Source of the DNA: Escherichia coli
Lineage (GTDB): Bacteria > Pseudomonadota > Gammaproteobacteria > Enterobacterales > Enterobacteriaceae
Direction: 5' to 3' (one strand)
Assembly: GCF_003334255.1 (NCBI RefSeq)
Contig: NZ_QOWU01000153.1
DNA: 1,616 nt
Numbering within the stretch: the first letter of the stretch is position 1; every line of letters begins with the position of its first letter. The notes under the pieces are model-generated. The model did not search any database and was not told the DNA's origin. It saw only the letters and a program-made list of their open reading frames with translations. This document shows positions 1-1,616 of the stretch, one piece after another. The translations under genes and the position numbers were made by a program.

Positions 1-351
1 AACCAGATGGACCCGGTGTACACGCCGGCGCGAAAAATCCACCTGTACCACTGCGACCATCGCGGCCTGCCGCTGGCGCTTGTCAGCACGGAAGGGGCAA
101 CAGAATGGTGCGCAGAATACGATGAATGGGGCAACCTGCTGAATGAAGAGAACCCGCATCAGCTGCAGCAGCTTATCCGCCAGCCGGGGCAGCAGTATGA
201 TGAGGAGTCCGGCCTGTATTACAACCGCCACCGCTATTATGACCCGCTGCAGGGGAGGTATATCACTCAGGATCCGATTGGGCTGAAGGGGGGATGGAAT
301 TTTTATCAGTATCCGCTGAATCCGGTTCAGTATATAGATTCAATGGGACTG
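1..351 (+). other. Conserved Rhs core C-terminal segment, ending in the PxxxxDPxGL-type demarcation/autoproteolysis motif ([10 protein letters not shown], nt 322-351)
   Basis: YD-repeat-like RYYDP (aa 76-80), DPIGL (aa 89-93) and PxxxxDxxGL (aa 106-115) are read directly from the translation. The segment is GC-rich (about 58% by hand count over nt 1-60), unlike everything downstream. Confidence 0.85.
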
Positions 352-810
352 GCATCAAAATATGGACACTTAAATAATGGCGGATATGGAGCGAGACCCA
401 ACAAACCGCCTACGCCCGATCCAAGTAAATTGCCGGACATAGCGAAACAATTAAGACTGCCATATCCTATTGACCAGGCCAGTAGTGCGCCTAATGTTTT
501 CAAAACATTCTTCAGAGCATTAAGCCCTTACGACTACACACTGTATTGCAGGAAGTGGGTAAAACCAAATCTGACTTGTACGCCACAGGATGATTCCCAG
601 TATCCAGGGATGGATACAAAGACAGCAAGTGATTACCTGCCACAGACAAATTGGCCAACAACTCAATTACCACCAGGATATACTTGTGCAGAACCCTATT
701 TATTCCCAGACATTAATAAACCCGATGGGCCAGCAACAGCAGGGATAGATGATTTGGGTGAAATTTTAGCTAAGATGAAACAGAGAACATCGAGAGGAAT
801 AAGAAAATGA
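1..810 (+). CDS. Rhs-family polymorphic toxin, 3' portion of the gene (5'-partial): conserved core terminus plus variable C-terminal toxin domain
   Basis: Frame 1 is open from nt 1 (aac cag precede the ATG at 7), so the listed ATG is an internal Met and the gene continues upstream. The translation ([12 protein letters not shown]...[47 protein letters not shown]) is the hallmark C-terminal end of the enterobacterial Rhs/YD-repeat core. Stop TGA at 808-810. Confidence 0.9.
352..810 (+). other. Variable Rhs C-terminal (CT) toxin domain, about 152 aa, activity not recognisable; Pro-rich linker followed by a roughly 110-aa C-terminal module
   Basis: It begins immediately after the DSMGL motif, where Rhs proteins carry their polymorphic toxin tips. 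Composition drops to about 45% GC (hand count over nt 421-480). A Pro-rich stretch ([30 protein letters not shown], aa 128-157) precedes a Cys-containing module (C181, C191, C227). I see no HNH, deaminase, ADP-ribosyltransferase or other familiar catalytic motif. Confidence 0.75.
792..799 (+). promoter_or_regulatory. Shine-Dalgarno / ribosome-binding site for the immunity ORF, embedded in the 3' end of the toxin ORF
   Basis: GAGAGGAA at 792-799, with the AGGA core ending 8 nt before the ATG at 807. Consistent with translational coupling. Confidence 0.5.
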
Positions 811-863
811 AAAGAGTTTTGTTCTTTTTGCTGATGATATTTGTTAGTTTTGGTGTTATAGCT
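807..863 (+). other. Predicted Sec signal peptide of the immunity protein (possible signal peptidase I cleavage after VIA, aa 19); a non-cleaved signal anchor is the alternative
   Basis: MKR positive n-region, a 14-residue hydrophobic h-region ([14 protein letters not shown]) and small residues at -3/-1 (V-I-A) before DC. It is not a lipobox, because the residue before Cys21 is Asp. Confidence 0.5.
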
Positions 864-1376
864 GATTGCGAAATACAAGCTAAAGATCATGATTGTTTTA
901 CTATTTTCGCTAAGGGTACTATTTTTTCCGCGTTTCCTGTCTTAAATAATAAAGCCATGTGGAGATGGTATCAGAATGAGGACATCGGTGAGTATTATTG
1001 GCAAACAGAACTGGGTACATGTAAAAATAATAAATTCACACCAAGCGGGGCGAGACTCTTAATTCGCGTCGGGTCACTACGCCTTAATGAAAATCATGCC
1101 ATCAAAGGAACGTTGCAGGAGTTGATAAATACAGCAGAAAAAACGGCGTTTCTCGGCGATCGGTTTAGAAGTTATATAAGAGCGGGTATCTATCAAAAAA
1201 AGAGCAGTGATCCAGTTCAGTTGTTGGCAGTCCTTGATAATTCAATCATGGTAAAATATTTTAAAGATGAGAAACCAACTTATGCTCGAATGACAGCACA
1301 TCTCCCGAACAAAAATGAGTCTTACGAATGTTTAATAAAGATACAGCATGAACTAATTCGTAGTGAAGAGAAATAA
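807..1376 (+). CDS. Putative cognate Rhs immunity protein (RhsI-like), 189 aa, with N-terminal signal peptide or membrane anchor
   Basis: The ORF lies immediately downstream of the Rhs CT with a 4-bp ATGA overlap (start 807-809, toxin stop 808-810), the canonical toxin-immunity arrangement. A Shine-Dalgarno-like GAGAGGAA sits 8-15 nt upstream. The N-terminus [19 protein letters not shown] has a basic n-region, a hydrophobic core and a VIA motif. The region is very AT-rich (about 30% GC by hand count over nt 841-900). Confidence 0.75.
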
Positions 1377-1601: not shown

Positions 1602-1616
1602 ATGGAACTTAAAAAA
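1602..1616 (+). CDS. Possible start of a downstream gene (3'-partial, only 5 codons visible: MELKK)
   Basis: ATG at 1602 preceded by an AAGGTGA RBS-like motif, after about 225 bp of AT-rich non-coding sequence. Too short to assess coding potential or identity. Confidence 0.3.

Follow-up and report, generated by a model that had tools for sequence, protein, structure and literature searches.

A probably exported candidate immunity protein encoded behind an Rhs toxin tip in the rhsC region of Escherichia coli

Introduction

The gene that follows an Rhs toxin tip in the rhsC region of Escherichia coli appears to encode a protein with a signal peptide, which raises the question of the compartment in which this protein, and the toxin encoded in front of it, would work. 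In the field of type VI secretion (T6SS), immunity proteins that carry a signal peptide are routinely taken to indicate a periplasmic cognate effector. The first-pass annotation of the DNA analysed here, a stretch of 1616 bases referred to below as the window, reasoned in this way, and set the leader against the cytoplasmic location of Rhs immunity proteins that neutralise nucleases. The premise of cytoplasmic action stands for most Rhs toxins: in one survey the cytoplasm is the predicted site of action of nearly all Rhs and PAAR-Rhs effectors, with about 20% of VgrG-linked Rhs predicted to be periplasmic (bioRxiv 10.1101/2024.02.26.582050). A catalogue of Salmonella effectors likewise places Rhs-linked toxins with the cytoplasm-targeting ones (PMC11996579). 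There are exceptions, such as the characterised Rhs toxin Tse5, which works from the periplasmic side by forming pores in the membrane (PMC10684867).

Both genes of the pair have appeared in earlier work. The K-12 genes ybfO and ybfC have been handled as an operon (PMC3946193). A transcriptome study of STEC labels ybfC a "putative secreted protein" and reports stronger expression of rhsC (log2FC 8.49) and ybfC (log2FC 4.23) in HUS-associated than in non-HUS isolates (PMC6033998). For EHEC EDL933, passages of another study put forward RhsC/RhsCI (z0847-z0851 / z0853) in silico as an effector/immunity pair (PMC7216683). The rhsC-specific primer rhsCR of the same study (PMC7216683) maps to positions 393-412 of the window, inside the toxin tip, and RhsC/RhsCI is almost certainly the pair described here. 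The passages on RhsCI give weak TPR-type motifs and leave a signal peptide unmentioned, whereas YbfC has a leader; those on the RhsC tip propose a VipE-like role directed at eukaryotes, for which we see no support in the present data. The signal peptide of ybfC is thus already in annotations and the RhsC/RhsCI pair has already been proposed; our literature search returned no work on the function of either ybfC or ybfO.

Results

Organisation of the locus

The window corresponds to the E. coli rhsC region at 99.9% identity. Of 5426 complete genomes of the species, 3516 contain at least 80% of it. Its gene order is that of the K-12 rhsC locus: the ybfO pseudogene, ybfC and ybfQ. In the RefSeq annotation of J53, a K-12 derivative, the upstream ORF of the window is ybfO, an N-terminally truncated Rhs pseudogene positioned after the main rhsC-ybfB pair, and the ORF at positions 807-1376 bears the name ybfC. 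The C-terminal toxin domain (CT) encoded upstream of ybfC is found in E. coli E2865 as the tip of a full-length RhsC of 1399 aa, which is also followed by ybfC; the K-12 arrangement is therefore best described as a displaced orphan toxin/immunity module.

The left part of the window (1-351, forward strand) encodes the C-terminal end of an Rhs YD-repeat core, and this coding sequence is open at the left edge of the window. Residues 1-115 of the ORF match the NCBIfam models RHS_core (2.2e-68) and TIGR03696 (3.1e-23; score 82 bits, cut-off 32.5), and the ORF also matches the Pfam family RHS (PF03527). The core gives way to the tip at DSMGL (337-351), a variant of the DPxGL-type motif. Homologues carry DPKGL, DPMGL, DSLGL or DALGL at this boundary; the window has Ser in place of the usual Pro. 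The CT, of 152 aa, occupies 352-810 of the forward strand including its stop codon. The Rhs core has a GC content of about 58%, the tip one of about 45% and ybfC one of 31-43%; a step-down toward the variable end is typical of Rhs genes.

The forward-strand ORF of ybfC (807-1376) encodes 189 aa from the first possible start codon past an upstream stop, and its translation equals K-12 YbfC (UniProt YBFC_ECOLI) residue for residue. Its ATG shares the bases ATGA (807-810) with the stop codon of the toxin ORF. A Shine-Dalgarno sequence, GAGAGGAA (792-799, forward strand), can be read within the end of the toxin ORF, and homologous junctions carry GGAG or GGAA at the equivalent position.

Between ybfC and ybfQ lies an AT-rich spacer of 225 bp (1377-1601, about 30% GC). 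The start of ybfQ (1602-1616, forward strand), a fragment of an ISAs1-family transposase according to the RefSeq annotation of J53, is flank of the Rhs element and stands outside the toxin/immunity pair. A published list gives a constitutive sigma-70 promoter in this spacer, reading toward ybfQ (PMC3946193). Our scan of the spacer found neither a promoter-like site on the forward strand nor a terminator-like site, and detected a single promoter-like site on the reverse strand (1442-1415); nothing in the promoter and terminator scan exceeded the shuffled background.

Pairing of ybfC with the toxin tip

Close homologues of the CT and of YbfC occur in Enterobacteriaceae only, in the genera Escherichia, Salmonella, Citrobacter, Kluyvera, Pseudocitrobacter and Phytobacter. 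A YbfC-family gene lies directly 3' of a CT-family toxin in all seven loci examined, and the junction between the two is a 4-nt overlap in six of them. Citrobacter portucalensis and Kluyvera have a full-length Rhs protein (1381-1384 aa) with a homologous tip and, immediately after it, the YbfC homologue; other Citrobacter contigs carry the pair as an orphan module, located behind VgrG and a different Rhs. In two loci (L002/L003), VgrG is immediately upstream of the Rhs array. Three remote loci that we examined, L009, L012 and L013, encode a protein of 188-194 aa immediately 3' of the tip, with 28-34% identity to YbfC in the mature part, and L009 has VgrG-like, DUF2169 and PAAR-like genes as neighbours. 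Identities of toxin and immunity protein drop in parallel, from 71-73% and 64-69% to 32-41% and 28-34%, respectively. In L012, one orphan tip is followed by two YbfC-family genes in tandem (4735-5301 and 5404-5976), which looks like an accumulated immunity array. Strict adjacency, translational coupling, co-divergence and tandem duplication are hallmarks of cognate immunity genes of polymorphic toxins. The proposal of the first-pass annotation that the downstream ORF is an immunity candidate gains support from this pattern of adjacency (7/7), overlap (6/7) and co-divergence, and the comparison it had suggested, a search for homologues beside other toxins, places YbfC-family genes next to CT-family toxins in each of the seven loci.

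Sequence and profile searches of Pfam, NCBIfam, PADLOC and the PDB, including searches with the alignment, returned nothing significant for YbfC, and no known immunity family was matched. AlphaFold2 gives the mature protein the fold of a generic beta-sandwich. A Foldseek search of AFDB50 with this model retrieved uncharacterised proteins only (178-209 aa, E 1e-11 to 6e-5, 9-28% identity), from Paracidovorax, Delftia, the planctomycetes Roseiconus and Stieleria, and Lentisphaera. The modelled immunity fold may be much more widespread than the YbfC sequence family. One YbfC homologue is annotated as 'Periplasmic protein'.

A generic beta-sandwich that matches no known immunity family could also belong to an exported protein that confers no immunity, be it an accessory factor, a decoy, or an unrelated protein that is secreted and simply travels with the Rhs element. 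A protein of that kind would not be expected to adjoin one toxin family in seven loci, to be coupled to it and diverge with it, or to be duplicated in tandem behind it, and no candidate ORF other than ybfC is present between the CT and the next element. We consider such a role decidedly unlikely and regard YbfC as the candidate immunity protein in what follows.

The leader of YbfC

The n-, h- and c-regions of a signal peptidase I (SPase I) signal peptide are all recognisable in YbfC. The protein starts with Met-Lys-Arg, with basic residues at K2 and R3, and continues with 16 uncharged residues (4-19), with a mean Kyte-Doolittle hydropathy of 2.99 over 15 residues. The c-region reads V17-I18-A19 before D20, with small residues at -3 and -1. 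The predicted signal peptide (residues 1-19) corresponds to positions 807-863 and the mature protein of 170 aa, with its stop codon, to 864-1376, both on the forward strand. In the AlphaFold2 model, residues 1-18 are unstructured and lie outside the beta-sandwich, with pLDDT below 50.

The same architecture recurs throughout the family, which we compared over 31 full-length members whose mature parts share as little as 28% identity. In each of the 31, the N-terminal signal sequence opens with basic or polar residues and continues into a hydrophobic stretch of 9-19 residues. At least one Lys or Arg is present within the first eight residues in 30 members, and a clear small-x-small site is found in every member except P0103. 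The leader sequence drifts among the 31 members and the mature part is well conserved; the sites equivalent to VIA read ASA, AIA, AFA, ALA or SIA in remote homologues. The signal-peptide call is based on sequence rules, conservation and the AlphaFold2 model. Judged from these sequences, the signal-peptide features of YbfC are more than chance, and the Sec-type leader described in the first-pass annotation (MKR, hydrophobic core, VIA) is confirmed by the sequence rules and by its conservation in the family.

Most Rhs immunity proteins neutralise toxins that act in the cytoplasm, and YbfC could be imagined to do the same, its hydrophobic N-terminus being unused for export. A leader architecture kept in 31 of 31 members despite the drift of its sequence is difficult to explain in this way, as are the paired, conserved cysteines of immunity protein and toxin described below. 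Nor is there a conserved alternative start downstream, and the ATGA overlap fixes the start of the ORF. We regard a cytoplasmic YbfC as very improbable.

Cysteines and possible membrane anchoring

Four cysteines lie in the predicted mature part of YbfC: C21, C30, C72 and C175 (codons 867-869, 894-896, 1020-1022 and 1329-1331, forward strand), exactly as listed in the first-pass annotation. All 31 family members have C30 and C175. C21 and C72 occur together in 24 members, are jointly missing from seven, and are never found singly. The joint gain or loss of C21 and C72 suggests the disulfides C30-C175 and C21-C72, of which the former may be ancestral and the latter added in one clade. The two periplasmic disulfides that had been envisaged from the even number of cysteines are consistent with this co-occurrence, and can now be given putative partners.

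The position of C21 directly after the leader, and its invariance in the enterobacterial clade, admit another reading: YbfC would face the periplasm as an immunity protein tethered by a lipid or by an uncleaved signal-anchor, and the toxin would act at the membrane surface. Immunity lipoproteins are common among T6SS systems, and lipobox-like sequences (L-A-S-C, I-A-A-C, M-A-S-C) occur in 8-9 of 21 homologues. The protein of the window does not fit a lipobox, having D at -1 of C21, and its close relatives have D or N there. Seven family members that lack C21 still keep the leader, and C21 always accompanies C72, as a disulfide partner would rather than a lipidation site. At 9-19 residues, and with a small-x-small site behind it, the hydrophobic stretch would be short for holding the protein stably in the membrane. 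Taken together, this makes a tethered YbfC unlikely, and a soluble protein released by signal peptidase I remains our preferred reading.

The lipobox comparison also bears on the family at large. The pattern [LVI][ASTVI][GAS]-C is absent from YbfC of the window, which reads I-A-D-C, and a lipobox is excluded here because of the D at -1 of C21; the lipoprotein reading of this protein was rejected for that reason. In E. coli, E. albertii and Salmonella enterica this residue is D or N. Homologues from Kluyvera, Citrobacter and S. salamae, in turn, have a canonical or near-canonical lipobox before C21, namely LAS-C, IAA-C or MAS-C (P0020, P0025 and P0027-P0032; alignment A1, positions 17-21). Anchoring may have switched within the YbfC family and differ between its members.

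The toxin tip

The 152-aa CT gave nothing significant against Pfam, NCBIfam, PADLOC and the PDB in sequence and profile searches, including those with alignments. It is rich in Pro (21 of 152 residues) and Tyr, has a pI of about 9, and its maximal 19-residue hydropathy (max KD19) is 0.14. Its homologues sit on Rhs C-termini only. Searching 1.84 billion representative proteins with a profile added remoter tips at 32-41% identity, and those with enough upstream sequence are all at the ends of Rhs cores; a match to a 2084-aa protein (P0098, E = 3e-4) was judged fortuitous, P0098 being a repeat protein. Residues S58, P59, C66, W69, C76, P107, C112, A130 and D134 do not vary among homologues of as little as 27% identity; the three Cys codons lie at 547-549, 577-579 and 685-687 (forward strand), and no His is conserved. 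The conserved core spans about 100 aa and can be written as SPYDY..YCxKW..C..PG.D.KT..DY.P..P.GY.C..PYYFPEL..DD..RK. The AlphaFold2 model of the CT, built on an alignment of eight sequences, has a pLDDT of 37, too low for the fold to be used.

Two known kinds of toxin were considered and set aside. A Tse5-like pore former is ruled out because the CT has no hydrophobic segment, as its max KD19 shows. The absence of a conserved His makes a Cys-His hydrolase unlikely, and the idea of a catalytic NlpC/P60-type toxin was dropped for this reason.

The three invariant Cys and the lack of a hydrophobic segment make a soluble, disulfide-stabilised protein active in the periplasm the most likely reading of the CT. 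Three cysteines within a core of about 100 residues would fit folding or activation in an oxidising compartment, although this is suggestive only. Three is an odd number, allowing at most one intramolecular disulfide next to one free Cys, and the disulfide-stabilised part of the reading is weak for that reason. The Rhs proteins that carry the CT have no predicted transmembrane helix; delivery that stops at the periplasm would be consistent with this, though not proven by it. Nothing in these carriers points specifically to periplasmic delivery, and the same Rhs core bears cytoplasm-acting toxins in other strains.

The tips of neighbouring main Rhs proteins have features of their own. The main K-12 RhsC tip (L001:7480-8259 region) contains nine Cys, and ybfB, downstream of K-12 rhsC, encodes a very hydrophobic multi-pass protein of 108 aa (max KD19 2.7), so that the main rhsC/ybfB pair of K-12 also looks envelope-directed. 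The main Rhs tip of Citrobacter (L002:5790-6389) is Gly/Ala-rich and hydrophobic, with a max KD19 of 1.69, and is reminiscent of glycine-zipper pore-forming toxins.

Proposed mechanism

The gene arrangement, the signal-peptide features, the conservation and co-occurrence of cysteines and the co-divergence of the two proteins are observed. From these we infer, with moderate confidence, that YbfC is the cognate immunity protein of the upstream Rhs CT and works in the periplasm, and the CT toxin probably acts there as well. The original claim of a periplasmic immunity protein and a toxin active outside the cytoplasm thus finds support in silico, from the pairing, the conserved leader, the cysteines and the lack of a transmembrane segment in the CT.

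Translation of YbfC would be coupled to the end of the rhs ORF through the ATGA overlap. Sec would export the protein and signal peptidase I would cut it after A19, and the mature form of about 170 aa would fold into a beta-sandwich with two disulfides made by DsbA, most likely C30-C175 and C21-C72. In the periplasm, YbfC would bind and block the toxin tip of about 150 aa, whose conserved core comprises about 100 aa. The tip itself would arrive inside the Rhs cage, delivered by type VI-secreting neighbours, and be released into the periplasm; it would most likely be soluble, disulfide-stabilised and active only in this oxidising compartment, on a target in the envelope. In K-12, where ybfO is a truncated orphan, ybfC could act as stand-alone protection from strains that carry the tip on a full-length RhsC.

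We put forward a further-reaching idea only tentatively. The tip could represent a new class of soluble, Cys-dependent and possibly non-enzymatic periplasmic toxins, delivered by the Rhs cage, activated by the disulfide machinery of the victim and neutralised in the periplasm by an immunity protein with an Ig-like fold, with an envelope target that is novel relative to those of characterised T6SS effectors.

Discussion

A soluble Rhs tip acting in the periplasm and paired with an exported immunity protein would, if the proposal is true, provide a clean and genetically tractable exception in E. coli, a model organism. The pair would allow the release of Rhs-cage cargo in the periplasm to be tested, and could reveal whether DsbA of the target cell activates the toxin. 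Both CT and YbfC match no known family, and the target could expose a new route of envelope killing. Two uncharacterised K-12 genes, ybfC and ybfO, would gain a working function. The pair is also widely spread, its region being present in most complete E. coli genomes (3516/5426) and an orphan in K-12.

Close analogies exist with Tse1-Tsi1, Tae-Tai, Serratia Ssp1/2-Rap and Ssp4, in which the immunity protein is Sec-signalled and periplasmic, as predicted for YbfC. In the Tse1, Tae and Ssp-type pairs the effector is harmless in the cytoplasm of the producer, and the CT may resemble them in this respect. Periplasm-acting T6SS effectors can require DsbA of the target cell, as do Ssp2 and Ssp4 of Serratia (PMC5792426). 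Effectors that contain Cys may need DsbA in this way, and the CT might share that need. The Tse1, Tae and Ssp effectors are, however, free-standing cargo with known enzymatic folds (amidases and others), whereas the CT sits at the end of an Rhs cage protein and shows neither a fold nor a catalytic motif that could be recognised, and our comparison of YbfC with the immunity proteins of the Tse1-Tsi1, Tae-Tai and Ssp pairs found no similarity in sequence or fold.

Another close analogue is Tse5 (RhsP1)/Tsi5 of P. aeruginosa, in which the toxin is Rhs-encapsulated, as the CT would be, and reaches its site of action from the periplasm (PMC10684867). Tse5-CT is a hydrophobic pore former that inserts into the inner membrane, whereas the CT of the window has no hydrophobic segment (PMC10684867 for Tse5), and its partner YbfC is predicted to be a soluble beta-sandwich with a cleavable leader.

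Canonical Rhs pairs, such as Dickeya RhsA/B, Serratia Rhs2 and P. protegens RhsA, share with the present one the Rhs core, the boundary motif, the low-GC tip and the coupled downstream immunity gene, and they too include orphan tip/immunity modules that arise by C-terminal displacement, like ybfO-ybfC of K-12. Their tips are cytoplasmic nucleases, deaminases or ADP-ribosyltransferases and their immunity proteins have no signal peptide, whereas the relatives of YbfC all have one. A periplasm-acting Rhs toxin with an exported immunity protein is uncommon for Rhs, and its principle is already known; the sequence evidence supports ybfC and the CT as a putative, uncharacterised T6SS effector/immunity pair that would act in the periplasm in the less usual, Rhs-encapsulated form.
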